Positions 3,323-46,414 of a stretch of DNA of 64,000 nt are shown here, piece by piece. The notes under the pieces are model-generated. The model saw only the letters and a list, made by a program, of their open reading frames with translations, ran no database searches and was not told the origin of the DNA. Numbering within the stretch: position 1 is the first letter of the stretch; each line of letters opens with the position of its first letter. The position numbers and the translations under genes were made by a program. The DNA comes from a bacterium (lineage in GTDB: Bacteria; UBA8248): positions 2,242,702 through 2,306,701 of the forward strand of contig OZ241875.1 of the NCBI GenBank assembly GCA_965203325.1, in the 5' to 3' direction.

Positions 3323-3866
3323 AACCCATATAACGCTTTAAAAACCAACCGTTTGCATTTTCAGTTTCATCCCGGCCGAAAAATCCGGGGTTCCACCCCC
3401 GCCGCTCCCGTCCGGCAATTCCCGAAGGGCGCACGGAGCGGAAACCTTTGCAGAATCTTTACCCACCGCCGCCGCCTTCGCTGATACCATTCAAGCCGTT
3501 TGAGCAGCCTCGAAGGGTGTTTGGAGAGGCGACGGATGAATCCGGCGGGGGACGCCGAGTTGCTTCGCCCTCATGGACGAGTCGTCGGCGGGCCGGATAC
3601 GCCGCGCGGGGGTCAAAGGCCCCGCACAAGGGTCTTCCCGCCCCGGAGACGGGAGCGCGGTCCAGTCGCGCGGATGCGCACCCGGATTCCGGCCGGTTGT
3701 CCGCCTTGTTGGCTCGGGCGGCTTCGGTCGATTCCTCCCGAAGCGGAAAGCCCGAACGCGGGGTCTCCCCGCGCGGCCCACCCCACGCCCCGAACACGGC
3801 AATCGCTCACTCTTCAATCGCGATTGACCCCGACACGGCTCATCGCGCCCTGAAGGCCCGCAACTC

Positions 3867-4207
3867 CCCGCATTGCATTTCCCCGCATTTGCTGTCATGG
3901 CGGGACCGGCCGGTCGTGGCAGAATCCTCCTGCGTCGCGGCCTGGCGGCGTCATTTCCCAGGAAATTTAATTTTCAGAAATACCCCGTCAATTTATCGAT
4001 ATTTATCGAATTTTACGGGAATTTTCAGGAATTCCATTTTCTCGAACGAAACCGCCCGGCTTCGCCATCATACGCGCCCGCGCCCCGAGCAGCGCGACGG
4101 CAATTGCGGGCAAATGCGGGTCGTTTCGAACGGGATGCGGAGAATTTCGTCCGGACGCCGGGCGGGAGCGGTGAGCGCTTCGCCGCAAATGCGGGCAAAT
4201 GCGCCCC
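3867..4207. repeat. Six copies of CCCGCATTTGC-like motif in both orientations, bracketing an AT-rich ~100-bp segment (3952-4050) that contains ATTTATCGA x2
   Basis: Direct reading: ccccgcattgc / ccccgcatttgc at 3867-3892, and the reverse-complement pairs at 4101-4120 and 4185-4207. Confidence 0.5.
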
Positions 4208-4311
4208 GGCGCGCGAGGGATGGAGACCCGGACGGAGGATGCGGAATCCGACCCGGCCGTCGCGGGTCAATCGCGACCGAAGAGGGGCCGGTGAAAAAGT
4301 CTGGCATGCGA

Positions 4312-4500
4312 CCCCTACGAAGATCGCTCTCCACCGAGGAAAATTTCAAATCAACTCCCCCCTTGAGGGGGAGTCGAAGAGGCCGAGCCTTGGCGAAGGC
4401 CGATTCGGTGGGGGGAGGTTTTTATCTGTGGCTTGTCCCCCCACCGATTCGGTTTCGGGTTTACACCCTCACCTCATCGACTCCCCCTCAAGGGGGGAGT
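4312..4500. repeat. Family-A complex palindromic element (REP/MITE-like), copy 1
   Basis: Nested inverted repeats: outer AACTCCCCCCTTGAGGGGGAGTCG / CGACTCCCCCTCAAGGGGGGAGT and inner CCGATTCGGTGGGGGGAG / CTCCCCCCACCGATTCGG. The same architecture recurs at 13364, 19011 and 40236. Confidence 0.8.
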
Positions 4501-4687
4501 GAAATTTAGCGCTCTCCTTCTGGGACTTTTCACCAGCCCCCTCCTCAGGGGGCATCGTTTTTACCCCCCTGACAAGGGGGGGTAGGGGGGGGTGGTTTTC
4601 CAGTCGAGAGGGGCGCCGCCTCTCCCCGCTCGGGATTGATTAAAAACCCCATCTCGCCATGCTAGAATAATGGGAGCGGCTCTCGCG

Positions 4688-4774
4688 CGGAGGGATGGCC
4701 GAGCGGCCGAAGGCGGTGGTCTTGAAAACCACTGAGCGAAAGCTCCGGGGGTTCGAATCCCTCTCCCTCCGCCA
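4688..4774 (+). tRNA. tRNA-Ser (anticodon UGA)
   Basis: Acceptor stem GGAGGGA/TCCCTCC, anticodon loop CTTGAAA, long variable arm, GGTTCGAATCC T-loop, encoded CCA. Confidence 0.9.
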
Positions 4775-4876
4775 GTTCATACGGGCGGGCCTGGAGAAAG
4801 CCTGAGTTTCTCGTAGCCGTTCCATGCGGGCATCGCCGCTCAGCCATTGCCATTCACCGACCCCTTTGCACCGTCC

Positions 4877-4998
4877 GCACGGCACCCCGACCCGCCGCTA
4901 TACTTGCCCGGAACATTTCTGCAAAATAAGACCATGGCATGCAGTCCACCGGAACGGCGACCGATAAGGGCGGTCGAGGAGACCGGATAGCGACATGG
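4877..4998. repeat. Left 122-bp direct repeat (DR-L) bounding the low-GC island
   Basis: ~93% identical to 10759-10880 (gcacggcaccccgacccgccgctatacttgcccggaacatttctgca...gcgacatgg). Confidence 0.85.
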
Positions 4999-5192
4999 GG
5001 ACTCCCAAGTTAGGCAAAGGTGATGACAGGACCATAGTGAACGGCTGGTGCGAGGGCGGGCGCACCGTCCATCAAGTAAGCATTTGATATGGGGGAAACA
5101 CTCCGCCACTACATGAAGACTTCTCGATCAGCCAAGCCAAACAGCTATGTAGGAGATACCTGCTACTTGAAAACTCACACGTCGGAGCGCTT

Positions 5193-6419
5193 ATGATTAG
5201 ACCCCCAGATATAAAGGGACTGGCGCGGCGTTGGCGTCGTGCGCCGCGACGATGGGGCCACCCTCTACACTCTTTGTGCTCGTACTTCGCCATGTTTCCG
5301 CCACAGGTTCCGTACGTATTCATTCGATGGCTTACTAAGCCTGGTGATGTCGTCTATGATCCGTTTGCCGGACGCGGCACTACACCTATGGAGGCATGCC
5401 GGATGGGACGCGTTGGCATGGGTTCGGATGCTAATCCCCTGGCGCACCTCCTTACCGCAGGCAAAGTAGACGCTCCAACCACTGATGAGGCACATACTCG
5501 CTTGAGAGTCTTGCGTGAGAATTGTGTCCCGGAGTGCCCGAGTTCAGCCCCTGCTGACATCCAGATGCTCTACTCAGGCCGAGTCCTCGGGCAGCTCATA
5601 TGGTTGCGAAATGCACTTAAAGTTAGCCAGCGTGATGACCGATTCCTAATGGCACTTCTCTTAGGGGTGATGCATGCCAACTATAGGCCCGGTGGACCGG
5701 TACACGGCTTGTCGATCAGTATGCCGAACACATTTTCGATGTCGGCGGGATATGTCCGGCGATATATTGAGGAGCATAGGCTCGTACCACCCGATGTTGA
5801 CGTCTTCGATCTTCTCGATTGGAAGCTGGGCAGGATGAGCTTGCCTGAGGCTACGGCAACGCGAGGCACCGCTTGGCAGCAGGACGCACGCAACCCCATG
5901 GCCACGACAATTTGCGACCGGCCTGCGAAGCTCGTGTTCACATCTCCCCCTTACCTTAGCGTCATCAAGTATGGGAAATACAACTGGGTGCGACTCTGGA
6001 TGCTCAAGCAAGAACCGGAAGTGGTTGATCGAGCACTCGTCGCGACTGGGTCTCTGCCGAAATACCTGCAGTTCATCAGTGCCGTCTTGACGCAGATGGC
6101 CTCAGCGATTCGGGAGGATGGATACCTCTGTCTGATGATCGGCGACGTTTATGATCGTTGCAAGGGAAAAACTACGAACCTCGCTGCCCAGGTCTGGGAG
6201 GAAGCTGCGCAACCACTTGGTTGGCGCCTTCATGGCATTGTTACTGACCGACTTCCAACTAAACACAAAGTCAGTCGAATTTGGAAGCAAAGGCGTGGGG
6301 AAGCGACGAAGACGGACCGTGTACTTATATTATCCCGCCCTGGAAACAACCTTACTCAGCTGCCTCCTCTTAGCCCTATACGGTGGGAGCCAGCTTCCGA
6401 GTGGGCTGCAGGAGGATAG
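5193..6419 (+). CDS. DNA methyltransferase (N6-adenine/N4-cytosine, PF01555-like, motif I then IV order)
   Basis: Motif I/X context FPPQVPYVFIRWLTKPGDVVYDPFAGRGTT, and motif IV TSPPY further C-terminal. Confidence 0.85.
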   Translation: MIRPPDIKGLARRWRRAPRRWGHPLHSLCSYFAMFPPQVPYVFIRWLTKPGDVVYDPFAGRGTTPMEACRMGRVGMGSDANPLAHLLTAGKVDAPTTDEAHTRLRVLRENCVPECPSSAPADIQMLYSGRVLGQLIWLRNALKVSQRDDRFLMALLLGVMHANYRPGGPVHGLSISMPNTFSMSAGYVRRYIEEHRLVPPDVDVFDLLDWKLGRMSLPEATATRGTAWQQDARNPMATTICDRPAKLVFTSPPYLSVIKYGKYNWVRLWMLKQEPEVVDRALVATGSLPKYLQFISAVLTQMASAIREDGYLCLMIGDVYDRCKGKTTNLAAQVWEEAAQPLGWRLHGIVTDRLPTKHKVSRIWKQRRGEATKTDRVLILSRPGNNLTQLPPLSPIRWEPASEWAAGG

Positions 6420-6424
6420 AAGTA

Positions 6425-8383
6425 ATGTTGATCAACGAGAGACTTAGGAACTTGGCGACAATAAATGTCTTCGAGGATGTCGCGATTGAGAACTCGTTTA
6501 TCGGGCGACCATTCTACTTCGACTTTAACAAGATGAAGATCTTGTCGAACGACCACTGGAAGGAAATGGTGGGTGGGGTCCCGGCTGGGGCTTTTCTTGC
6601 TGCACTATTCGACAACGACACGGAACATCCAGAGGTCGTACTTCTTCGTGTCCTTGGGCCAACTGCGCTTCCAACTGATTCAGATGTCGTCGCTGCAATG
6701 GTGGATCACTACAAGGAGAGTGAAGGAACGGAGACGGACTCGGGAACGCTCGACAGCTATACTAGGTACGAGTTTCAGTTCTCAGGCCTAGAGTGTAGAG
6801 TGCTCGGTTCTTTTTATCAGAATGCACAAGGCAATACATGCTTCGGGGCTGATGTCGACAACTTCTACGGCCCCAACAACTACTCGGTCTACAAACCTTC
6901 CGGTAACGTTTTGGAGTACCTAGTGAATTTCCGTGAAGGCGACGGACTTCCCGGAGGACCTGGAGATCAAAGAATCGGTGAAATCCGCTACTCGTCAAGC
7001 CAGCGGCACACTCAGGATGCTTCTGTCCCTCTGTATGTGTCGGCCCTTGACTACTTAGGAAAACGCACAGCGCTCTTCGGAATGAAGCGTACAGGAAAAT
7101 CCAATACCGTCAAAAAGATCATTCAGGCAACTGTAAACTTGGGATCAGCGGGAATTGAGCATGAGGGTGAGCAGCTTGTCCCAATAGGGCAGATCATTTT
7201 CGATGTAGACGGTGAATATGCCAATGCGAATCTACAAGACGAAGGAACCGCGGTTTTTGAGCTTTTTGAGAACGAGACCATCCGATACTCCACCCACCCA
7301 AAAGAAGGCTTCCGTGTGCTCAAGGTGAACTTCTACAACGAGGTTGATCTGGGATTCGAGCTCATATCCAGTGATCCGAGAGTCGCGGACGACACAACGA
7401 GATTTGTGTCGAACTTTAGAAGCGTAGAACTGACGCAGCCTGACCAAGAGAACGTGTCTGAGATAAGGCGCTGGGAGCGACGTAGGGCTGTGTATTTTTG
7501 CATTCTGCACGAGGCAGGTTTCGCTGCGCCTCAGACTTTCCAGGTTCGCTTTTCGGCTAATGCTGAAGTTCGAAACGCTGTGGCTCTTAACTTCGAGGCA
7601 GACCGTAGGGGATATATGCGCCTCACTCTGCAGCAAGCCTCCGCATGGTGGCAACGTTTTTGGGAAGTGTATGCCGCCGACCCCAACGGTTGCTTTGCAC
7701 AATACAAACGCGACCACGATAGCCGACCTTGGGCTGAAGATGATCTTGAGGCCCTGCTCACAATGCTCACAAGACGGCGCACGTCCGGAGGGGCAGTCGA
7801 CTGCAGCGGTTTTCGTGTCTTGCGGGAGATCGCCGAAAAACACACATCGACACTACAGACTTCATTTGAGGATGACATCCTTCAGCAGTTACGTGAGGGG
7901 AGAATCGTAATTGTTGATCTCTCGCTCGGAGATGACATCACGAAGCGTTTCTTCTCCGAGAGAGTATGCCGTCGTATATTCGATGATGCAATGCTCCGCT
8001 TCACTCAGATGCAGACACAAAACTTCATTCAGATGTATTTTGAAGAAGCGCACAATTTATTTCCGAGGAAAGAATCTGCCGACCTAACCCAGATCTACAA
8101 TCGTATTGCAAAGGAGGGTGCGAAGCTCCGACTTGGACTCGTCTACGCCACCCAGGAAGTTAGCTCGATATCAGCGAACGTTCTCAAAAACACACAGAAC
8201 TGGTTCGTGTCGCACCTTAACAATCAAGATGAGCTTCGCGAGATAGCTAAATATTACGACTTCGAGGACTTCGTGGATAGCCTTCGACGAACGACCGACA
8301 AAGGGTTCATTCGAATGAAGACGTACTCCAACGCGTTCATTGTACCCGTGCAGATCGACCGGTTCACAGTGGCGGAGACATAA
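6425..8383 (+). CDS. HerA/DUF87-like P-loop ATPase (FtsK-HerA superfamily) with a ~200-aa N-terminal domain of unknown function
   Basis: Walker A GMKRTGKSNT, Walker B-like IVIVDLS plus EEAHNLFP (DEAH-like), and the HerA C-terminal motif KLRLGLVYATQEVSS...NTQNWFVSHLNNQDE. The start is probably ATG 6425 after GGAGGA; the track starts at 6383. Confidence 0.65.
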   Translation: MLINERLRNLATINVFEDVAIENSFIGRPFYFDFNKMKILSNDHWKEMVGGVPAGAFLAALFDNDTEHPEVVLLRVLGPTALPTDSDVVAAMVDHYKESEGTETDSGTLDSYTRYEFQFSGLECRVLGSFYQNAQGNTCFGADVDNFYGPNNYSVYKPSGNVLEYLVNFREGDGLPGGPGDQRIGEIRYSSSQRHTQDASVPLYVSALDYLGKRTALFGMKRTGKSNTVKKIIQATVNLGSAGIEHEGEQLVPIGQIIFDVDGEYANANLQDEGTAVFELFENETIRYSTHPKEGFRVLKVNFYNEVDLGFELISSDPRVADDTTRFVSNFRSVELTQPDQENVSEIRRWERRRAVYFCILHEAGFAAPQTFQVRFSANAEVRNAVALNFEADRRGYMRLTLQQASAWWQRFWEVYAADPNGCFAQYKRDHDSRPWAEDDLEALLTMLTRRRTSGGAVDCSGFRVLREIAEKHTSTLQTSFEDDILQQLREGRIVIVDLSLGDDITKRFFSERVCRRIFDDAMLRFTQMQTQNFIQMYFEEAHNLFPRKESADLTQIYNRIAKEGAKLRLGLVYATQEVSSISANVLKNTQNWFVSHLNNQDELREIAKYYDFEDFVDSLRRTTDKGFIRMKTYSNAFIVPVQIDRFTVAET

Positions 8384-8386
8384 CTT

Positions 8387-9733
8387 ATGGGATATGGCTC
8401 CAAGGGACGAAAGCCTATAGAGCGCGCCAGTAAGATTGCGCACGCAGAGATTATCAAAAACCCGGAAGTCCAAGCTTATATGAGAGAATGTATAGTCCCA
8501 TCTGCGCCTGGCGTGGAGTCACTCGACTCTATGATTGAGACGCTCGGCGAAGTGGATACCTCAGAAGTGACTGCGGTCGTCGCTGTGGATGGTGGCTACA
8601 CAGAGACCTATGTGCGTGAGGAGTATCCTTCGGCCTCCATTACGTTTTTCACATTCGGTCCCCTATTGTTTGAACTTGCTGACCTCCGCGCATTGGACAA
8701 AAAGAGGTTCATTGCGCCAGAAGAGCTCGCTCGCCTTAAGAGAATCGAGCGCTACACCCTTGTGTTGCCGACGAAGGGTATTCGGCGTCAGGACCAACAG
8801 TCCCTGTCAGCCACGATCCGGCGCACTGTATACGAGTTCTTCACAAAGCCACGTGGGGAAGACGATAATCTCATGGTCAGCCTCAAGTGGTTTCTATTCA
8901 GGCGTTGGAAGCGGAATCCAGACAATGGTCTAGTTCAGATTGTTGAGCACTGTCCATCAGATTGCGGTCACGGAGCAACGAGTTTCCTTTTTGAGGAGCA
9001 GACTGAGAAAAGCTGTCCTAAGTGCGGGCGACCAGTTTATCTTACGGATGTCTTCCGGCTGCAAGAGCGGATCGATGAGGAGCTAGGTGCGGGAGGAATC
9101 AGTGCCTATGTAATGACAATGCTGGAACAACTAGTTCTCATACACCTGTTCTACAACATAATAGAGCGCCTCAAGCCCAGCCTGATGCGGAGCATCTTAT
9201 TCATCAAGGATGGACCATTGGCCTTTTTCGGTCTGGTTGCTCCGCTGTGTCGGCCCATGCGGGAGCTCGTGCAGCACCTACTCAGCGAGCCCGGAGGACA
9301 AATGGGGCCAACGCTCAGGCTCGCCGGATTAGAGAAGAGTGGAGCATTTGTCGAACACGCTGCAGCGATCCAGGACCTTATGGAGCCTAACTCCTACATG
9401 ATTGTTAATGATGGCTATATCCGGCGACATATCGTGCCAGGAGAGGTCGGCGTGGTGTATGGACAAAACACATACTACGGCCAAAAAGTGTTGTTCCGGG
9501 CACCGGGTGGGGAGATGCACGTCGTGACGATCCCGGCCCAAAGCTATATGGCAGATCCGAATCCCTCGGAAATGCCCCACCTCGAAGATGTGCTGACACT
9601 CATCGCCGAGCTTCGATGCAGTATGCACGATAATTCGTTGATTCCTGTTGCATTGGCAAACAAACTCGTCTCGCTTTCTGACTTCCCGAGCCAGCGCATC
9701 CTAACGACTTTCGCGAGAGAGAACATCCAGTGA
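8387..9733 (+). CDS. NurA-like / RNase H-fold putative nuclease with internal zinc ribbon (partner of the upstream ATPase)
   Basis: AVDGG near the N-terminus (NurA motif I is xDGS), a CPSDC...CPKCG zinc ribbon, and acidic motifs IKDGPL and IVNDGY. It is translationally coupled to the upstream gene (4-nt gap). Confidence 0.4.
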   Translation: MGYGSKGRKPIERASKIAHAEIIKNPEVQAYMRECIVPSAPGVESLDSMIETLGEVDTSEVTAVVAVDGGYTETYVREEYPSASITFFTFGPLLFELADLRALDKKRFIAPEELARLKRIERYTLVLPTKGIRRQDQQSLSATIRRTVYEFFTKPRGEDDNLMVSLKWFLFRRWKRNPDNGLVQIVEHCPSDCGHGATSFLFEEQTEKSCPKCGRPVYLTDVFRLQERIDEELGAGGISAYVMTMLEQLVLIHLFYNIIERLKPSLMRSILFIKDGPLAFFGLVAPLCRPMRELVQHLLSEPGGQMGPTLRLAGLEKSGAFVEHAAAIQDLMEPNSYMIVNDGYIRRHIVPGEVGVVYGQNTYYGQKVLFRAPGGEMHVVTIPAQSYMADPNPSEMPHLEDVLTLIAELRCSMHDNSLIPVALANKLVSLSDFPSQRILTTFARENIQ

Positions 9734-9848
9734 ACTAGCCCTGCACTTTCCAACTTCTAGAGTTCTATGGGTCTTGTTTCTTTAATGCAATGGATATTTA
9801 GACTATTGAGTTTGAAAGAGTTTCCGGGACGGAGACAAATTTCGCGAT

Positions 9849-10451
9849 TTGATCGAGGTAGAAAGTGTGGCTAAAAAAAATACTACTGGGCTTGACAAGG
9901 TTCCAAAGCGTTTGTTTTTAGACTCTTCTGTTTTGCAAGTACTTCTAACCTATGGTGAGTTCATCTACGATGGAGGAACAATACCTTCTCAAGCTCGCAT
10001 CTGGTCGATTCCCAAAGGGCTAGAGAATTTAGATGCTCTTAAACAGATCATGTTTGTAGGTAACCGTGCTTTGTTTGAGTTTGCACTGTCCTCTCAAAGT
10101 CTAGAAGAAGTAGCGCAACGGAAGGATGCAAAATATATGGACTGGGCAAGAGATGTCCTCGTGTATTGGAGAAATAAATTGGCTAGTTACGATGAGGTTG
10201 GTATTCCAGCGTTTAGTGGGTATGGCAGCAAAGTTGCCACGAAGCTTGAATCTAAAAAATTCGGTTACCTGAGCAATAAAGATAAGGCATTGTTGGTAGA
10301 TGCCCTGAAGCTAGAATGTGAGGCCTTCATCACGATGGACCGTAGACTTGTCCGGAACACATTCCACCTAGAAGCCCATGTTGCGATTAAAGTTTTAGAG
10401 CCAATAAAATTCTGGGGCCTTTTGCAACCTTGGGCGCCGCTATTTGTTTAA
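9849..10451 (+). CDS. PIN-like domain protein (putative)
   Basis: RLFLDSSVLQVLL (β1 Asp), a conserved Glu, and EAFITMDRRL (T-x-D). This is the lowest-GC gene of the island. Confidence 0.35.
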   Translation: MIEVESVAKKNTTGLDKVPKRLFLDSSVLQVLLTYGEFIYDGGTIPSQARIWSIPKGLENLDALKQIMFVGNRALFEFALSSQSLEEVAQRKDAKYMDWARDVLVYWRNKLASYDEVGIPAFSGYGSKVATKLESKKFGYLSNKDKALLVDALKLECEAFITMDRRLVRNTFHLEAHVAIKVLEPIKFWGLLQPWAPLFV

Positions 10452-10758
10452 ATTGCTGAAGCGAATCACGCTAAACTGTGGGAAAAGAGCCCTGTATGGC
10501 AGCGCACTATGGGCTGAGGAACATCCAAACTTTCAGATTTATCAGCAAGGAGGCCAAGAGAGCGGACACGGGCACCGGATACCGATACTCAAATCGGGAG
10601 CGAGCGATTAGATATCCATCGAACTCTCTTCAATCAACGTAGTGGAAAACAAGCCCTCGTAACGAGAGATTAGGGAACGGATCACAGGAATCTCTAAAGC
10701 CTTTGACCTGAACGATTCTCCATATCCCCTCATCGACACCATCAATACCGATCCATCA

Positions 10759-10880
10759 GCACGGCACCCCGACCCGCCGCTATACTTGCCCGGAACATTT
10801 CTGCACAATAAGACCATGGCATGCAGTCCACCGGGACGGCGACCGACGGGTGCGGTCGAGGGGACCGGAAAGCGACATGG
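10759..10880. repeat. Right 122-bp direct repeat (DR-R) of the island
   Basis: Matches 4877-4998. Confidence 0.85.
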
Positions 10881-13306
10881 CGATTGCCGGACGGGAAAAG
10901 GAACGCGGGGCGAAGGGCCAATGCGAGGGCGCGAACGGCGTTCATCCGCGCCGCCGCCTCGTGAATGGGGGGCGCGGCGGCGGCGCCTTCACGCTGAGCC
11001 GGGCCTCCGCTTGCGCCGTCCTCCTTTGCGCGATGCTCATTCTCACGAACTGCGGCGGGGGCGGCTCGGGAGCGCGCCCCCAAGCCGCGGTGACGCCCGA
11101 AACCCCGCAGCCGCAACCACCCCCGCCAGAGCCAGTGCAGCCGCCGCAACAACCGCAGCCGTCGCCGCAACAACCGCAGCCGCAGGAATGCGTTCCGCTC
11201 CAAGACGGGACCTGCCCCTCGGTCGACGATTTCAACAGCCGGGCGCGGCGGCTCGCCGGCACATACGCCGTACACCGGAATTTCAGGAACCAGCCGAGTC
11301 TCGCGGCAATCGGCGCAGACCGAGCCTACGCCCACGTCCACCTGCTCGAGGGCGCGGGCGCCGCGCCGGGCGAGGGCGTGACCATCGGCTTCATCGACAG
11401 CGGCATCGATACCGCACACCGGATGTTCGCGGGAAAGTCGGTTGACGAGGTGTTCATCAGCGGCGCCTCGAACGAGACGGGCGCCAGGTTCTCCCACGGC
11501 ACGGCCGTCGCGAGCGTCGCCGCCGGAATCCGGGATCACACCATCGCCCGCGGCCCGCACGGCGTCGCCTGGGGCGCCGACATCGCCATGTTCGCCATTC
11601 CCTTACAAAGCCCGGACGGCCCCTACAACCCCGTCTCTCTCACCAGTTCGGGAGGCGCAGACGACTCGTGGGCGTCGCGGCTCGACCGGGTCCTGGCGTG
11701 GCGAAACGGCCCGAGGCGCGCCGACATCCTGAACCTGAGCATCGGCTATCAGGGCATCATCGACGACTACGACGAGGACGACCTCCGCGCCAGCTTCGAG
11801 CGGACGATCGCCGCGATGGCGCAGGCGGGAGCCATTGATAAGGCGGTTTTCGTCTGGGCGGCCGGCAACGCCCACGGAAGGGAATGCGCTTCGTCGGTGG
11901 CCCACTGCGAGAACGGAAAAATCAACGCCGTTTCGCCCGAGGTGCTGGCGGGCCTCGCCGCGCGGGTCGAGGAACTCCGGGGACATACGGTCACCGTCGC
12001 GGCGCTGGGGCCGGGCGGAACCATCGCGGACTTCTCCAACCGCTGCGGCATCGCGGCGGACTATTGCATCGCGGCGCCCGGAGAAGACGTCCGGGTCGCC
12101 TGGTTCGGACCCCATCCCGACACGTCCGCGCCCATCCGGGGCGTCGGGAGGAGCAGCGGAACATCCGTCGCCGCGCCGATGGTGTCCGGCGGGCTCGCCA
12201 TCATGAAGCAACTCTTCCGGGACCAGCTCTCGAACACCGAACTGGTGACGCGCCTCTTCGAGACCGCCGACGACACCGGCGCCTACGCGAACAGGGCCGT
12301 TTACGGCCGGGGAAAACTCGACTTGGCCGCCGCCACGCACCCCGTGGGCGTCCCGGCGGTCCCCGTCGCCGGGAACGCGAACGGGGCCGGGAGCAATCTG
12401 CGCGCCACGAGCCTGCGTCTCGGGGCGCCGTTCGGGAACGGCCTCACGCGGTCGGTCGGGGACCACGAAATCATGGCGCTCGACGATCTGGGCGCGCCGT
12501 TCTGGTACCGGCTGGGCGATTTCGTGACGACGGCGAAGGTCCCGGCGATGGACGCAAGGGTCAGGCGCTTTCTGGCGGGCGGGACGCTAGGGGTCAGCGC
12601 GCAGGAGACCACGGCGGAAGCCGGCGGCGGCCACCTCTCGCTCGCCGAGGGGGGGATGACGGCGACGTTCACCGGCCGGGCGGGCCTTTCCGCCTCGGTG
12701 TTCGGGACGAACCACGAGCACGACGTGGCGGGCGGGACACTCGGCTGGCGGCCGGAAGGCGCCCCGCTCGGCCTGCGCGTCGGGTGGATAAGCGAGGGCG
12801 GAACCATCCTCGGCGGCGAGGGCCGGGGGGCCTTCGGGTCGCTGGCGGCGGACACCGCCTTCATCCGCCTCGAGGGAGACGTGAGGCTCGGCGCGTGGCG
12901 TCTCGGAGCGGATGCGGAATGGGGGAGCGCGCGCGCCCGGGCCCGGGGCGGGCTCATCGAGGAGGTATCGCCGATCTCGACCAGCGCGTTCGCGCTGCAC
13001 GCACGCGCCGCCGTGACGGATACGGACACCGTGCGGCTCGCCCTCTCACAGCCCCTGCGCGTCGAGGACGGCCAAGCGTCGCTGACTCTCCCTGCTGCGC
13101 GGACCAAATTGGGGCGGGTGCTGCGCACGTCCCTCACCTCGCCGCTCGCGCCCGAGGCGCGCCAGATCGACCTGGCCGCCACCTGGGAGAGGCCGCTGGC
13201 GGAGGGGCGGCTGCGCCTCGGCGTCGTCTGGAGCCAAAACCCCGGCCACAGCGCCTCCGCCAAGCCCCGGCTCACGTTTCTCGCCGGCTGGCAAAGGGCG
13301 TTCTGA
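10877..13306 (+). CDS. S8 subtilisin-family serine protease, lipoprotein with C-terminal beta-barrel (NalP/SphB1-like autotransporter)
   Basis: Catalytic triad motifs DSGID, HGTAV, GTSVAAP; lipobox LILTNC; Pro/Gln-rich linker; C-terminal ...AGWQRAF. The start is uncertain: ATG 10877 (inside DR-R) or GTG 10961. Confidence 0.85.
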   Translation: MAIAGREKERGAKGQCEGANGVHPRRRLVNGGRGGGAFTLSRASACAVLLCAMLILTNCGGGGSGARPQAAVTPETPQPQPPPPEPVQPPQQPQPSPQQPQPQECVPLQDGTCPSVDDFNSRARRLAGTYAVHRNFRNQPSLAAIGADRAYAHVHLLEGAGAAPGEGVTIGFIDSGIDTAHRMFAGKSVDEVFISGASNETGARFSHGTAVASVAAGIRDHTIARGPHGVAWGADIAMFAIPLQSPDGPYNPVSLTSSGGADDSWASRLDRVLAWRNGPRRADILNLSIGYQGIIDDYDEDDLRASFERTIAAMAQAGAIDKAVFVWAAGNAHGRECASSVAHCENGKINAVSPEVLAGLAARVEELRGHTVTVAALGPGGTIADFSNRCGIAADYCIAAPGEDVRVAWFGPHPDTSAPIRGVGRSSGTSVAAPMVSGGLAIMKQLFRDQLSNTELVTRLFETADDTGAYANRAVYGRGKLDLAAATHPVGVPAVPVAGNANGAGSNLRATSLRLGAPFGNGLTRSVGDHEIMALDDLGAPFWYRLGDFVTTAKVPAMDARVRRFLAGGTLGVSAQETTAEAGGGHLSLAEGGMTATFTGRAGLSASVFGTNHEHDVAGGTLGWRPEGAPLGLRVGWISEGGTILGGEGRGAFGSLAADTAFIRLEGDVRLGAWRLGADAEWGSARARARGGLIEEVSPISTSAFALHARAAVTDTDTVRLALSQPLRVEDGQASLTLPAARTKLGRVLRTSLTSPLAPEARQIDLAATWERPLAEGRLRLGVVWSQNPGHSASAKPRLTFLAGWQRAF

Positions 13307-16886: not shown

Positions 16887-18617
16887 TCAAGCGAATGTAT
16901 TTCCACCCGATTTTCGCATCCGCCCCTGGCGAATGTCGACTATCTTTCCGTTGAACAAATCCACGATCTCCTGGATCACGGCCTCTTCACTCTCATCCCG
17001 TTTCCGGCCATGCGCATTGCTCTTCTCTCCGGCCCCCTGCCCGGTTTGCGAACGCGCGCCGTTTTCCGCGCCCGCTATCTCGACCCTGGCGCTCCAGGGG
17101 GAATGCTCCCGGAAAAACTTCTCGATTTCGGGCCGCACCTCCTCCGCCATGTGCAGGCCCTGCGCGTTTCGGTTCTCCCGGGCAAGCACCACGCGGACGG
17201 TTCCTTCCGTTTCCAGATCGAGCTCCACGCCGTGAAAGAGCGGGCGCCTCATCGGGCGCAAGGCCTTCACCGCTCCGGCCCACACGCGCCGCGCCTCTAC
17301 GGAGTTCCACTCCTGCGCTTCGGCTTGGGCGACGGGAGAACCCCCCGAAGCAGGTTCACCCGCAGGCGGCGCAGGCTCGGGCGCCGCGGTTTCCCGGGCA
17401 GCCGGAGGCGGCGCGGCGGCGGGAACCTCCCCTCCCGGCGAGGGGGCGCGCGGGGGATTCGGCGCCGCTCCCCCGCTCATGGATTCGAGCCGTTCCATCA
17501 ACGCGCCCAAATCCGTAATCGGCTCAATCTGGCACATGCGGAGAATCGCGACCTCGAGCGTCATGCGGGGATGATCCGATGTCCTGAGTTCGAACTCCGC
17601 ACCCTGCAGAATGGAATACGCCTGATGCGCCTCGGCGAAACTCATCTTCGCGGCTACCTGCCTGCGCTCTTCGATCTCGGAAGCCGCCACGTCGAAGAGC
17701 GCCTCATCGTCGCCTGCGGAGAGGAGCACCATGCAGTCGCGCAGATACTCGAGCAGGTTCGAGGAGAAGAGCTTGAGGTCGTGGCCCGCGTCGAAGAGGT
17801 TCTTGAGCTCGGTGAGCGCCTTGTTGCCGTCGCGCGCGACCACCGCCTCGACCAGGGCTTTATAGATGCTGCCCGACGGCACACCGAGCACCTTTTCCAC
17901 TTCTGCGCTCGAAACCGGATCCTCGGCGGCGAAAGCGAGCACCTGATCCAGCAGGGATTGCGCATCGCGGATGCTGCCCTCCCCCATCCGCGCCAGCAGC
18001 TTGACGGCCGCATCGTCCATCTTCCGCTCCTGCGCCTCGACGATCCTCAAAAGATGTTCCGCGATGACAGAAGTCGTGATCCGCCGGAACTCGAACACCT
18101 GGCAGCGGCTCAAAATGGTGTCGGGGACGTTCTTGATCTCCGTGGTGGCCAGAATGAAGACGACGTGGGGCGGGGGTTCCTCGAGCGTCTTGAGCAGCGC
18201 GTTGAACGAGCTTTTGGAGAGCATGTGCACTTCATCGAAAATCACCGTCTTGTAGCGCCCGCGCGCGGGCTGGTAGCGCAGCCCCTCGCGCAACTCGCGC
18301 ACGTTGTCCACCCCCGTATAGGTGGCGGCATCGATTTCGAGAATATCGGGATGGCTTCCTGCGGTGATCTCCTCGCACGACGAGCACGCGTTGCACGGTT
18401 CGGGCAGCGGCCCATCCCCCGATTCGCAGTTGAGCGCCTTGGCGAGAATGCGCGCGGTGGTCGTCTTGCCGACCCCGCGCGTCCCGCTGAACAGATAGGC
18501 GGAGGCGACGCGCCCCGAGGCGAGCGCGTTCGATAGCGTTCGCCGGATATGCTCCTGGCCGATGAGTTCCCCGAAGCGCTGCGGACGCCATTTCCTGGCG
18601 CTGCCGATGAAGGACAT
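16887..18617 (-). CDS. dnaX: DNA polymerase III subunit gamma/tau
   Basis: ARKWRPQRF...GTRGVGKTT Walker A, zinc module CNACSSC. The start is probably M15 of the track ORF. Confidence 0.95.
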   Translation of the reverse strand: MSFIGSARKWRPQRFGELIGQEHIRRTLSNALASGRVASAYLFSGTRGVGKTTTARILAKALNCESGDGPLPEPCNACSSCEEITAGSHPDILEIDAATYTGVDNVRELREGLRYQPARGRYKTVIFDEVHMLSKSSFNALLKTLEEPPPHVVFILATTEIKNVPDTILSRCQVFEFRRITTSVIAEHLLRIVEAQERKMDDAAVKLLARMGEGSIRDAQSLLDQVLAFAAEDPVSSAEVEKVLGVPSGSIYKALVEAVVARDGNKALTELKNLFDAGHDLKLFSSNLLEYLRDCMVLLSAGDDEALFDVAASEIEERRQVAAKMSFAEAHQAYSILQGAEFELRTSDHPRMTLEVAILRMCQIEPITDLGALMERLESMSGGAAPNPPRAPSPGGEVPAAAPPPAARETAAPEPAPPAGEPASGGSPVAQAEAQEWNSVEARRVWAGAVKALRPMRRPLFHGVELDLETEGTVRVVLARENRNAQGLHMAEEVRPEIEKFFREHSPWSARVEIAGAENGARSQTGQGAGEKSNAHGRKRDESEEAVIQEIVDLFNGKIVDIRQGRMRKSGGNTFA

Positions 18618-18680
18618 CAAGAATCCATCCCAAGGATTTCCGCCGTTGAAGGGCCCCATACCCCGTGAGCGGCGCGCAGA

Positions 18681-18815
18681 CCCTGCGATGGAGTCGACCG
18701 GTCAGGCGCCCTCGTGGCACCCGGGAGTGTCCACTTACCGCTGCTTCCTTCCGGACCTGACGGGGTTCGCGGGCTCCCGCCGCACGAGACCCAACCGGCC
18801 GAATCCATCGCAGGC
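18681..18815 (-). ncRNA. ffs: Signal recognition particle RNA (4.5S/ffs)
   Basis: The minus strand reads ...CCCCGUCAGGUCCGGAAGGAAGCAGCGG... (the conserved domain IV motif) inside a long hairpin whose ends CCUGCGAUGGA/UCCAUCGCAGG pair. It lies upstream of dnaX as in many bacteria. Confidence 0.8.
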
Positions 18816-44631: not shown

Positions 44632-45540
44632 ATGGCGGTATACTCTCCGGGAGCATATAAAGGAAAACCGACCCGAGCCACCAGCTACCTGGCAGGCTTG
44701 CTCGAAGAAAACGACAAGCCGGTTCTGACCCAGCTCGATTTTTTGCAAATCATTCGCCAAATGTACCGAGAATCACCCGACAAGAAACTATATCTGCGCC
44801 ACGATACTCCTGGCCGGGCAGACTGCTTTCGTCTCAGGTCAAACTTGAATAGGCAAGGCGTAATCGGGCCCGATCGGGATTATGGCGCGCGCATCATCAG
44901 GGTGTTGGCCGTTTCGGACCTTCCGGCTGAAGGCATCGTCTGCCTCGTCGATCCGACATGCTACATTTCCCACCTCTCCGCTATGCAGCGGTGGGGACTC
45001 ACCGACCGAAGACCGGATGCCCTGATGCTGACGCGCCCGGATCGCAAGACCGCCATGATCCACTTAAAAGCACACACGTCGAAAATTCTGGGAACAGGAG
45101 AAACCAATCTCTTCCCGCTGAAGATCGTCGGTCATCCCGCTCGTGTCCGAAGGCGGGCCGTCCACGTTCATGAAAGCAAAACCGCAGGGGCGTTTTTGAA
45201 GAACCGGGGGGATGGAGTGTCTCTCTCGACTATCGGACAAACTTTCCTCGACATGCTTCAAAGGCCCGATCTTTGCGGGGGGATGTCTCATGTTCTCGAT
45301 ATTTGGGAAGAACACGCTAAAACCTATTTCAGCGAAATTGTCACATCGGTCGGGACCGCCAAAATCGGGATCGTCAAAAGCCGGGCCGGCTACATCCTTG
45401 AAGAACGGTTAGGGTTGCATCACCGCGAAATAGAGCGCTGGCAATCATGCGCTCAGCGCGGCGGTAGTCGCAAGCTCGATCCGGCCAAGGCCTTTGCGCC
45501 GACCTATTCAGAAAAATGGATGATTTCCCTCAATGCCTGA
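44632..45540 (+). CDS. AbiEi-family antitoxin / transcriptional regulator (type IV TA)
   Basis: CYISHLSAMQRWGLTD resembles the AbiEi/COG5340 YhSxxSAL..hGL core; it overlaps the downstream gene by 8 nt. Confidence 0.65.
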   Translation: MAVYSPGAYKGKPTRATSYLAGLLEENDKPVLTQLDFLQIIRQMYRESPDKKLYLRHDTPGRADCFRLRSNLNRQGVIGPDRDYGARIIRVLAVSDLPAEGIVCLVDPTCYISHLSAMQRWGLTDRRPDALMLTRPDRKTAMIHLKAHTSKILGTGETNLFPLKIVGHPARVRRRAVHVHESKTAGAFLKNRGDGVSLSTIGQTFLDMLQRPDLCGGMSHVLDIWEEHAKTYFSEIVTSVGTAKIGIVKSRAGYILEERLGLHHREIERWQSCAQRGGSRKLDPAKAFAPTYSEKWMISLNA

Positions 45541-46414
45541 ACCCAATCTTAAAATTGACGTTGCCAGGTGGGTCGAAAATGCGAAGGCCGACCCGGTCGC
45601 CTACCAGCAACGCCAGACGGTGGAAATAGTCCTCAACGCCATAGCGATGACGGTCCCCCTTAACGCAAAGATGTTCCTGAAAGGCGGCATTCTCATGGGT
45701 CTCGCCTATGACAGCCCAAGGCAAACGACCGACATCGATATGTCGACAAACCTTATGGCCCGAAGCGAAACCGCAGACAGGGTCAAAACGCTACTGGATT
45801 CAGCTTTCCCTCGCGCGGCCGCAGCGCTGGGTTATGCCGACCTCGTCCTTAAAACTCACTCGGCAAAAAAGATGCCTAAGAAAACAATCTTTGAAACAGC
45901 GGATTTCCCCGCCCTAAAACTCAAAATCGCTTATGCGCGCCGAAGGACAAAACAAGAAATGAGGCTTTTGGAGGGCAAAGTTTCTGAGGTGATTGACCTA
46001 GATATTTCATTCAACGAAACCTTGCAACATATCCAAGTATTAGAACTAACCGGTGGACAGGAGCTGCAAGCTTATGGCCTCGTCGATCTCATCGCCGAAA
46101 AATATCGCGCTATGCTTCAACAAGTGCCACGAAGGCGTAACCGGCGACAAGATGTCTACGATCTCGATTTGCTGCTTAGAATGCATCGGATCGATGACAT
46201 TCTCCGCACGCAAATCCTGGATGTTTTCATTGCGAAATGCCGGTCGCGCCGTATAGAGCCGACACGTTCGTCCCTAGACGACCCCGAGGTCAAAACAAGG
46301 TCTCGCGCAGAGTGGCAAACGATGAAATTGGAGTTAGGCGAAGTGCCGGATTTTGAGCGCTGTTTCGCCCGCATCTCGGAATTTTATCGGAACCTGCCTT
46401 GGAAACCAGAATGA
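45533..46414 (+). CDS. AbiEii/AbiGii-family nucleotidyltransferase toxin (DUF1814)
   Basis: FLKGGILMGLAYDSPRQTTDIDMS matches lKGGtAL...R.S.DIDf. Confidence 0.7.
   Translation: MPEPNLKIDVARWVENAKADPVAYQQRQTVEIVLNAIAMTVPLNAKMFLKGGILMGLAYDSPRQTTDIDMSTNLMARSETADRVKTLLDSAFPRAAAALGYADLVLKTHSAKKMPKKTIFETADFPALKLKIAYARRRTKQEMRLLEGKVSEVIDLDISFNETLQHIQVLELTGGQELQAYGLVDLIAEKYRAMLQQVPRRRNRRQDVYDLDLLLRMHRIDDILRTQILDVFIAKCRSRRIEPTRSSLDDPEVKTRSRAEWQTMKLELGEVPDFERCFARISEFYRNLPWKPE

Follow-up and report, generated by a model that had tools for sequence, protein, structure and literature searches.

A putative restriction-modification-like cassette that joins a DNA methyltransferase to a HerA-type ATPase and a NurA-fold nuclease

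What might a DNA methyltransferase (MTase), a HerA-type ATPase and a NurA-like protein do together when their genes lie head to tail in a small insert of a bacterial genome? The question is raised by a locus in a stretch of 64,000 nucleotides from a bacterium of the GTDB lineage UBA8248 (GenBank assembly GCA_965203325.1, contig OZ241875.1, positions 2,242,702 to 2,306,701 of the forward strand), referred to here as the window. An earlier, sequence-only reading proposed that these three genes and a fourth, PIN-like gene form a defence operon that had not been catalogued. The analysis described below supports that interpretation in part. With a probability of roughly 60%, the genes from 5193 to 9733 constitute a self-contained, horizontally mobile, three-gene defence system similar in logic to restriction-modification (R-M).

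The cassette and its enzymes

All four of the proposed co-directional genes are present as plus-strand open reading frames (ORFs) in the ORF list and its translations, at 5193-6419, 6383/6425-8383, 8387-9733 and 9849-10451, and every motif quoted for them is found in the translated proteins. An exact look-up showed that the gene products deposited in databases are 408, 652, 448 and 194 aa long. These lengths indicate that the ATG at 6425 is the right start for the HerA gene, and they make the GTG at 9867 more likely than the TTG at 9849 for the fourth gene. With homologues numbering in the hundreds to thousands, the ORFs represent conserved proteins and not chance ORFs. The four genes are as follows.

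5193..6419, plus strand: amino-methyltransferase of PF01555 in the alpha arrangement, modification subunit (Pfam, 1.6e-14; PADLOC MTase_II PDLC03325, 1.2e-39; invariant motifs; locus linkage)
6425..8383, plus strand: HerA/FtsK-clade ATPase of 652 aa, presumed hexameric DNA translocase (Pfam DUF87, 3e-12; PADLOC HerA, 1.6e-19; match to TdpA)
8387..9733, plus strand: NurA-fold (RNase H-like) nuclease of 448 aa with an inserted C4 zinc ribbon (fold; Pfam matches of relatives)
9867..10451, plus strand: PIN/VapC-fold protein, co-resident cargo, of 194 aa from GTG 9867 or 200 aa from TTG 9849 (fold)

The first three genes are tightly coupled. The stop codon of the MTase gene (6417-6419) is separated from the HerA ATG by 5 nt, and a Shine-Dalgarno sequence, AGGAGGA (6410-6416), lies within the 3' end of the MTase gene, 8 nt ahead of that ATG. 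Only 3 nt lie between the TAA of the HerA gene (8381-8383) and the ATG of the NurA-like gene (8387), in keeping with the translational coupling proposed for this pair. After the TGA of the NurA-like gene (9731-9733), an AT-rich spacer of 115 nt to TTG 9849, or 133 nt to GTG 9867, precedes the fourth gene. Promoter and terminator scans of the insert gave nothing beyond shuffled expectation, so the transcription units are drawn from gene spacing only.

The domain assignments made for the four proteins hold up. The MTase matches PF01555 (N6_N4_Mtase) with 54.9 bits against a cut-off of 26.7, and its match to the PADLOC model extends over the full length. Motif I, DPFxGxGT (DPFAGRGTT in the 408-aa translation), occupies residues 56-63 (D56, P57, F58, G60, G62 and T63), and motif IV, SPPY, consists of S251, P252, P253 and Y254. 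Both are invariant among 13 relatives, down to 31% identity. Motif I comes first, about 190 moderately conserved residues ahead of motif IV; this order defines the alpha arrangement and bears out the earlier description of the enzyme as alpha-class. The SPPY motif points to N4-cytosine methylation. Three of the five PDB matches are N4-C enzymes, but the alignment covers motif I only. Overall, the SPP(Y/F) motifs and the resemblance to systems with a 'cytosine-N4 methylase' (PMC10853773) suggest that the MTase probably modifies N4-cytosine.

The second protein matches DUF87/HerA (PF01935) with 47.5 bits, where the cut-off is 23.2, and carries the sequences GMKRTGKSNT, EEAHNLFP and GLVYATQ...FVSHLNNQDE. 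It also matches the mad8 model of PADLOC (2.9e-11). The HerA models of PADLOC and NCBIfam match its C-terminal region, the NCBIfam scores all being far below the equivalog level (46.6 against a cut-off of 800). In the numbering of the 652-aa product, relatives show no variation in Walker A (G219-S226) or Walker B (E540-E541), while the conservation profile identifies an insert at about residues 320-480 as the least conserved part. When the profile of the ATPase family was compared with the PDB, it matched nine HerA-type chains, from 3e-25 to 5e-9. TdpA of the TdpABC system (8wet_A) ranked first at 3.4e-25, followed by HerA at 1.2e-14 and the others down to 5e-9, and the single ATPase sequence ranked the structures alike. 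By analogy, the protein is presumed to be a hexameric ring DNA translocase. A conjugative VirB4/TraC-type ATPase, the competing identity raised by the sequence-only reading, is ruled out, as the Pfam, NCBIfam and PDB matches are all HerA-type.

The 448-aa protein is less easily placed. It contains the AVDGG motif and the CPSDC...CPKC cysteines (C189, C193, C210 and C213), which form a C4 zinc ribbon inserted in the NurA fold. It has no match in Pfam, PADLOC or NCBIfam, and none to NurA (PF09376) even at E<=1. Its sequence and the profile of its close relatives found only chance matches in the PDB, with no NurA or TdpB chain among them. Nevertheless, the protein has an RNase H-like NurA fold, for which TdpB is the top solved match, and 10 of 16 aligned family members, which are 26-78% identical to the window protein, match PF09376 (best E, 2.3e-7). 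Several homologues are named 'DNA double-strand break repair nuclease NurA' by PGAP. Given the null PDB searches, the NurA assignment rests on the fold and on the Pfam matches of relatives. The invariant residues D68 (strand 1), E247 (helix), D275 (strand) and E323/H324 are candidate catalytic residues, located on the expected secondary-structure elements of the predicted model. Active-site residues, candidate ones in the case of the nuclease, are thus invariant in all three cassette enzymes, and the catalytic motifs appear intact.

Linkage and modularity

If the three proteins act together, their genes should be found together elsewhere. A pattern scan of 185,579 genomes, one per species, identified 146 loci with a NurA-like relative. 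Eighty of these were fetched, 13 of which were at least 90% identical to another fetched locus. The NurA-like relatives occur in many bacterial phyla, in lineages of the candidate phyla radiation (CPR), and in Methanosarcinales and Methanotrichaceae. The closest relatives of the window protein are in metagenome-assembled genomes (MAGs) of Gemmatimonadota and Longimicrobiales, and an enterobacterial version of the cassette found no match in complete E. coli genomes. In every related locus with room on the contig, the gene immediately before the NurA-like gene is HerA. Searches with custom hidden Markov models placed an MTase gene directly upstream of HerA in 61 of the 70 informative genomic loci, with gaps between the two genes of -40 to about 130 nt. 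In 24 of these loci the MTase is alpha-type. In the other 37 it is a beta-type enzyme of about 325 aa, in which SPPF comes first, near the N-terminus, and motif I lies at the C-terminus.

The association also holds in the other direction. A reciprocal scan of metagenomes, seeded with the alpha-type MTase alone, found at least 491 relatives, from which 80 loci were kept, 67 of them with room for neighbours. HerA directly follows the MTase in 56 of the 67, and five more loci carry the HerA/NurA pair in another arrangement (61/67). A NurA-like gene is present in 40 of the 46 metagenomic MTase loci with enough sequence. The linkage between the MTase and the HerA/NurA pair is therefore near-obligate and reciprocal, and it supports the R-M-like logic that had been suggested for the locus.

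No other gene is a consistent member of the neighbourhood. Among 140 flanking ORFs from about 45 other loci, no family recurs, the maximum being three occurrences. The flanking genes are a mixture of housekeeping genes, insertion sequence (IS) and transposon genes (IstB, resolvase, TnsD) and defence genes, the last including Type III MTases, PDC-S48, PDC-S41, AriA, DrmD, an SLFN-type helicase and AAA_15/21. AbiTii is another defence gene seen beside the pair, and such neighbours speak in favour of a defence role. Families for conjugation, secretion or competence are not recurrent in these 140 ORFs, and no Mre11/Rad50 neighbours were found there. The embedding in conjugation or secretion loci that had been considered as a contrary outcome was thus not observed.

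These distributions bear on another explanation, in which the pair performs the housekeeping resection of double-strand breaks known from archaea and Deinococcus and stands by chance beside an orphan MTase. Both folds, and the name given by PGAP to several homologues, would suit such a role. In contrast, the distribution is patchy (146 loci in 185,579 species genomes), the locations include plasmids, a prophage and, in the window, a repeat-bounded low-GC insert, and the loci combine a lack of Mre11/Rad50 neighbours with a reciprocal MTase linkage. Additionally, TdpAB is a clearly better match than the canonical NurA and HerA structures. Chance adjacency of a repair pair is accordingly considered very improbable. 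The current labels 'DNA double-strand break repair nuclease NurA', 'DUF87' and 'hypothetical' are likely to be misleading.

The deeper branches of the family retain the trio but rearrange its genes or exchange the MTase for one of another family. On a haloarchaeal plasmid the order is DUF87, NurA-like, MTase. In two Vibrio temperate phages the HerA/NurA pair adjoins an integrase gene, and a D12 (Dam-like) MTase is encoded on the opposite strand beside an excisionase gene; HerA is annotated there as two ORFs (L090, 1309-3502). The Deferribacter megaplasmid pDF308 carries the MTase, a DUF87 gene broken by IS200/IS605 and then NurA, the interruption being by tnpA-tnpB (L089, 3126-6924). Together with a split MTase at L033, the divided HerA genes of L089 and L090 may point to genes that are breaking up or decaying. 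Six metagenomic MTase relatives lack the HerA/NurA pair. At two of these loci, L144 (202-6158) and L170 (198-6170), the genes for a PLD/ResIII/DEAD superfamily 2 (SF2) helicase, an AAA_23/SMC-like ABC ATPase and a protein of 131-143 aa precede the alpha-type MTase; L156 (30-3380) has a similar gene layout. Krishnan et al. (NAR 2024; PMC10853773) described such an architecture for Pbe/DndDE-like systems that carry MTaX1 and 'circularly permuted cytosine-N4 methylases', and the L144 and L170 modules match it as far as their gene content can tell. One MTase family thus serves alternative restriction modules and one restriction module takes alternative MTases, a modularity to be expected of R-M-type systems.

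The MTase slot can also have other occupants. On the Nostoc plasmid pANSO36C (L088, 4658-9466), a small helix-turn-helix regulator gene replaces the MTase and an AbiTii-domain gene lies directly downstream. In the cyanobacterial loci L034, L036, L038, L041 and L042, the slot holds an ORF of 82-86 aa. Archangium gephyra (L001; CP102578, 1-9350) encodes, in order, MTaX1, an SF2 helicase, a 64-aa ORF, an AAA_23 (SMC-like) ATPase, a 114-aa ORF and a 334-aa protein, which is directly followed by the HerA and NurA-like genes. Despite its position, the 334-aa protein was rejected as an MTase, as it has no similarity to the MTase family.

The pattern of linkage could also be explained if the MTase were a physical specificity subunit of the HerA/NurA complex, in the manner of Type I/III or BREX systems, so that MTase bound to unmethylated sites would license degradation. 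HerA and the NurA-like protein have no obvious target-recognition domain, the middle region of the MTase between motifs I and IV is moderately conserved, and the variable insert of HerA at about 320-480 could provide an adaptor surface. The translational coupling of the MTase and HerA genes (the 5-nt gap with the Shine-Dalgarno sequence inside the MTase gene) and the near-exclusive occurrence of the alpha-type MTase with the cassette (61/67 loci) would likewise be expected of a dedicated subunit. However, three unrelated MTase families stand beside a well-conserved HerA/NurA pair, which argues against a specific protein interface. Moreover, the order and strand of the MTase gene vary in the deep branches, the gene is missing from some loci, and the alpha-type family also serves another restriction module (L144, L170). 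A structural role for the MTase of this kind is unlikely.

The insert, its passenger and its surroundings

The location of the genes was also said to be mobile, and this is supported. Direct repeats of 136 nt enclose exactly four genes, those of the MTase, HerA, NurA-like and PIN proteins, in an insert of 5.9 kb. The landmarks are given below.

4689..4774, plus strand: tRNA-Ser(TGA), insertion-site landmark outside the system (ARAGORN; Rfam tRNA, 56.4 bits)
4871..5006, no strand: left 136-nt direct repeat, continued in register but more weakly to about 5073 (repeat search, pairwise alignment)
10753..10888, no strand: right direct repeat, with 90% identity to the left one (repeat search, pairwise alignment)

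The left repeat begins about 100 nt past the tRNA gene, and the right repeat extends over sequence upstream of an S8 peptidase ORF (10850-13306; Peptidase_S8) and into its first codons. The insert is a trough in GC content, at 54-58% for the MTase gene, about 50% for HerA/NurA and 41-44% for the PIN gene, against a background of 60-70%. Its flanks are housekeeping in nature and comprise serS, tRNA-Ser, the S8 peptidase gene, a second tRNA-Ser, the signal recognition particle (SRP) RNA and dnaX. An ORF survey of the insert found no integrase, transposase, Type IIG or large R-M enzyme or other transfer gene between the repeats. The low GC content, the direct repeats and the differing neighbours between loci suggest that the cassette is horizontally mobile without a dedicated recombinase. 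A process termed 'insertion with long target duplication' was reportedly described for mobile R-M units by Nobusato et al. in 2000 and Furuta et al. in 2010, and the repeat-bounded insert, by analogy, resembles it. No empty insertion site was recovered, the repeat core having no match in metagenomes.

The fourth gene is the part of the earlier proposal that did not stand. Its product folds as a genuine PIN domain whose acidic residues are conserved, but is about 60 residues longer than VapCs, and in its 200-aa form it has no match in Pfam, PADLOC or NCBIfam. Neither an ORF for a VapB-type antitoxin nor a homologue of the partners of its neighbours is found in 9734-9866 or 10452-10752, and no partner gene for the PIN protein came to light in a search of the window. 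A four-component system, with the PIN protein as an integral second effector, would be consistent with the position of the gene on the same strand and in the same repeat-bounded insert, 115-133 nt downstream of the cassette, as well as with PIN homologues near MTases at two loci, L085 and L094. Despite this, the PIN gene occurs in none of the 84 genomic and none of the 80 metagenomic related loci, and no conserved gene is found downstream of the NurA-like gene in related loci. This makes the cassette a three-gene unit and the PIN gene, on present comparisons, an independent passenger of the insert. Its GC content (41-44% versus 50-57%) and the 115-133-nt gap ahead of it also set it apart, and its small family of 41 clusters has homologues in unrelated contexts rich in toxin-antitoxin or IS genes. 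The four-gene operon envisaged at the outset can therefore be set aside, and an integral role for the PIN protein is scarcely credible. Thus, when neighbourhood conservation was examined, the unit of MTase, HerA and NurA-like genes was kept and the PIN gene was not.

The PIN homologues elsewhere have some features of their own. In L085 the homologue is preceded by a PF01555 MTase and an 890-aa protein without a Pfam match, and in L094 it lies 1.3 kb from another PF01555 MTase. An ORF of 98-100 aa follows the homologue in L093 and L094, with 94% identity between the two, and has no counterpart in the window.

Several observations concern the sequence around the insert. The left end of the insert carries a second copy of about the first 40 nt of the S8 subtilase ORF and of the sequence upstream of it, and the GC content of this ORF (10850-13306; 11000-13000) is about 70%, unusually high against the window average of about 63%. 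Close ahead of dnaX (16887-18659, minus strand) is the bacterial small SRP RNA (18697-18796, minus strand; RF00169, 74.8 bits), an ordinary housekeeping arrangement. Upstream of the tRNA gene, the region 3800-4510 is dense in repeats, all within an ORF without a Pfam match (3448-4509). It includes near-perfect 29-nt inverted arms (4354-4382 and 4472-4500, 97%), a second hairpin (4400-4452) and the sequence GCAAATGCGGGCAAATGC in direct and inverted copies at 3875-3892, 4100-4137 and 4185-4222; no Rfam family matches this region. A second GC trough (52-55%) at 44632-46414, plus strand, contains a 302-aa ORF without a Pfam match that overlaps by 8 nt the gene of a 293-aa AbiEii nucleotidyltransferase toxin (PF08843, 2.4e-28). 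The two are flanked by genes for a major facilitator superfamily transporter and a SurA-like rotamase, and they are probably an AbiEi/AbiEii pair of the type IV toxin-antitoxin or abortive-infection kind.

A proposed R-M-like system and its known relatives

Taken as an R-M-like system, the cassette would work as follows. The MTase would mark host DNA at its target sites, probably with N4-methylcytosine. The HerA-type ATPase would form a ring translocase on which the NurA-fold nuclease docks, as it does in the solved TdpAB and HerA-NurA complexes, and the resulting complex would load on unmarked DNA, such as that of phages or plasmids, thread it in an ATP-dependent manner and degrade it processively. 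Methylated self DNA would be spared either by a block to loading or translocation imposed by the mark, which is the TdpAB mechanism, or through target recognition supplied by the MTase. For comparison, An et al. are said to have reported in Nat Chem Biol in 2025 that the hexamer of TdpA and the nuclease TdpB move along DNA and break it down where phosphorothioate (PT) modification does not block them. TdpAB reportedly senses the backbone sulfur through contacts between motor and phosphate, with TdpA sensing the hydrophobicity of the PT.

A number of points weigh against this reading. No sequence-recognition domain was identified in HerA or the NurA-like protein, which is a difficulty for methyl reading by a ring translocase. 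The HerA/NurA pair is accompanied by three MTase families, alpha PF01555, beta PF01555 and D12, and this diversity is hard to square with a single fixed methyl-reading mechanism. In nine of the 70 informative loci, notably in the Nostoc group, the pair has no adjacent MTase, so it does not always depend on a linked one. At the Chloroflexia MAG locus L033 (3954-4981) the MTase is in two pieces, each its own ORF, beside HerA and NurA genes that appear whole, although the split may be an assembly error. The predicted model of the NurA-like protein is of moderate confidence (predicted local distance difference test, pLDDT, 63.7), and a scan of IMG/VR viral contigs did not find cassette relatives. 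Lastly, in the one operon of these three families that has been studied, that of the Thermus thermophilus element ICEth1, the TdtA and NurA-like genes are required for DNA donation (transjugation) while loss of the methylase has a minor effect (PMC5365140, PMC7767461).

If the R-M-like reading is nonetheless correct, the cassette would add a restriction engine of a kind new to methylation-based immunity, in which a ring translocase works with a processive RNase H-like nuclease. It would also tie together TdpABC, the HerA-scaffolded defences and the NurA/TdtA/methylase operon of Thermus ICEth1, and would provide a case of one MTase family exchanged between two unrelated restriction modules. The reach of the family is considerable: it occurs in at least 146 species genomes from many phyla, archaea and CPR bacteria among them, forms more than 2,200 protein clusters when grouped at 90% identity and has at least 491 metagenomic relatives on the MTase side. 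A mechanistic question follows: TdpAB reads a backbone sulfur, and a related motor would have to read a methyl group on a base. A more ambitious generalization, given slightly less than an even chance, is that the cassette represents a widespread, hitherto unrecognised class of ATP-dependent R-M in bacteria and archaea. In this class, a HerA-NurA engine would tell base-methylated DNA, probably with N4-methylcytosine, from unmethylated DNA, the MTase would come from a dedicated plug-in family common to Pbe/DndDE modules, and the ICEth1 genes would be a co-opted or misread member.

As for novelty, the claim that the system is uncatalogued was partly correct. PADLOC-DB v2.0.0 has no model for the NurA-like or PIN protein; the MTase and ATPase match the generic MTase_II and HerA/mad8 models, and no single system is complete. 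The trio is not described as a defence system in the searchable full-text literature, which most subscription journals lie outside. Even so, the claim was overstated and the novelty is limited, as the cassette is anticipated by TdpABC (2025), in which its closest solved relatives are found and of which it is most likely a counterpart that uses base methylation, by the ICEth1 operon (2017) and by HerA-scaffolded defences.

The ICEth1 operon, described in 2017, encodes in TTC1877-1880 a Type IIG enzyme (Tth111II/TthHB27I), the NurA-like TTC1878 (377 aa), the HerA/FtsK-type hexamer TdtA (TTC1879) and the PF01555 methylase TTC1880 (410 aa) (PMC5365140, PMC7767461). It is alike in bringing the same three protein families together in the operon of a mobile element, with a methylase of 410 aa as compared with 408 aa, the likeness being drawn from its description. 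It differs in its order (NurA-HerA-MTase), its additional Type IIG enzyme, its residence in an integrative and conjugative element that bears an integrase, its role in DNA donation and its nearly dispensable methylase. This operon suggests a donation or export module, in which the HerA motor would pump nuclease-processed chromosomal DNA out of the cell and so promote transfer. The shared families, the need for TdtA and the NurA-like protein in transjugation (PMC5365140, PMC7767461) and the location of the window cassette in a mobile insert would agree with such a role. However, the window repeats enclose neither an integrase, nor the Type IIG enzyme that the ICEth1 model requires, nor a transfer gene, and the 140 neighbouring ORFs have no recurrent family for conjugation, secretion or competence. 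Moreover, members of the family are found in very diverse bacteria, CPR lineages included, and in archaea, the gene order differs, and a near-obligate MTase linkage has no role where the methylase is nearly dispensable. DNA export by the cassette is thus quite improbable.

Other known systems resemble the R-M-like cassette in single respects. The canonical HerA-NurA end-resection complexes (S. solfataricus 2ygk/4d2i, D. radiodurans 7f6d, Thermococcus 9x1l) have the folds, the adjacent genes and the presumed pairing of ring translocase and nuclease in common with it, but their NurA and HerA structures are clearly poorer matches to the cassette proteins than those of TdpAB. Sir2-HerA and DUF4297-HerA (PDB 8j4u, 8xau and others) likewise use a HerA-clade ATPase as a platform for an anti-phage effector. 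Their effector, however, is a Sir2 NADase or a Cap4-like nuclease rather than NurA, and they have no modification gene and no self-marking. The Pbe/DndDE-like systems have the alpha-type MTase family in common with the cassette (L144, L170) and follow the same theme, methylation replacing PT modification, but with an entirely different restriction module that lacks HerA and NurA. Type I/III R-M systems also use methylation as a self-mark and couple an ATP-driven motor to a nuclease. In contrast, the motor of the cassette is a HerA/FtsK ring and not an SF2 helicase, its nuclease is RNase H-like NurA and not PD-(D/E)xK, and it has no HsdS-type subunit.

The closest solved relatives of the cassette ATPase and nuclease are TdpA and TdpB (PDB 8wet, 8wfd, 8y1k). 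TdpABC relies on PT, a modification introduced by tdpC alone (PMC12914056). The modification gene of the cassette encodes instead an amino-methyltransferase (PF01555; D12 in phages), which would place the mark on the base and not on the backbone, so that the PT-hydrophobicity sensing of TdpA cannot simply carry over. Compared with TdpB, the nuclease of the cassette has about 90 more residues and the C4 zinc-ribbon insert; compared with TdpA, the ATPase has about 65 more residues and the variable insert. The structure-based identity is only about 14%. Because the insert contains no TdpC and MTases occupy that slot in related loci, the cassette is not a member of TdpABC. It stands outside that system and resembles it in mechanism only.

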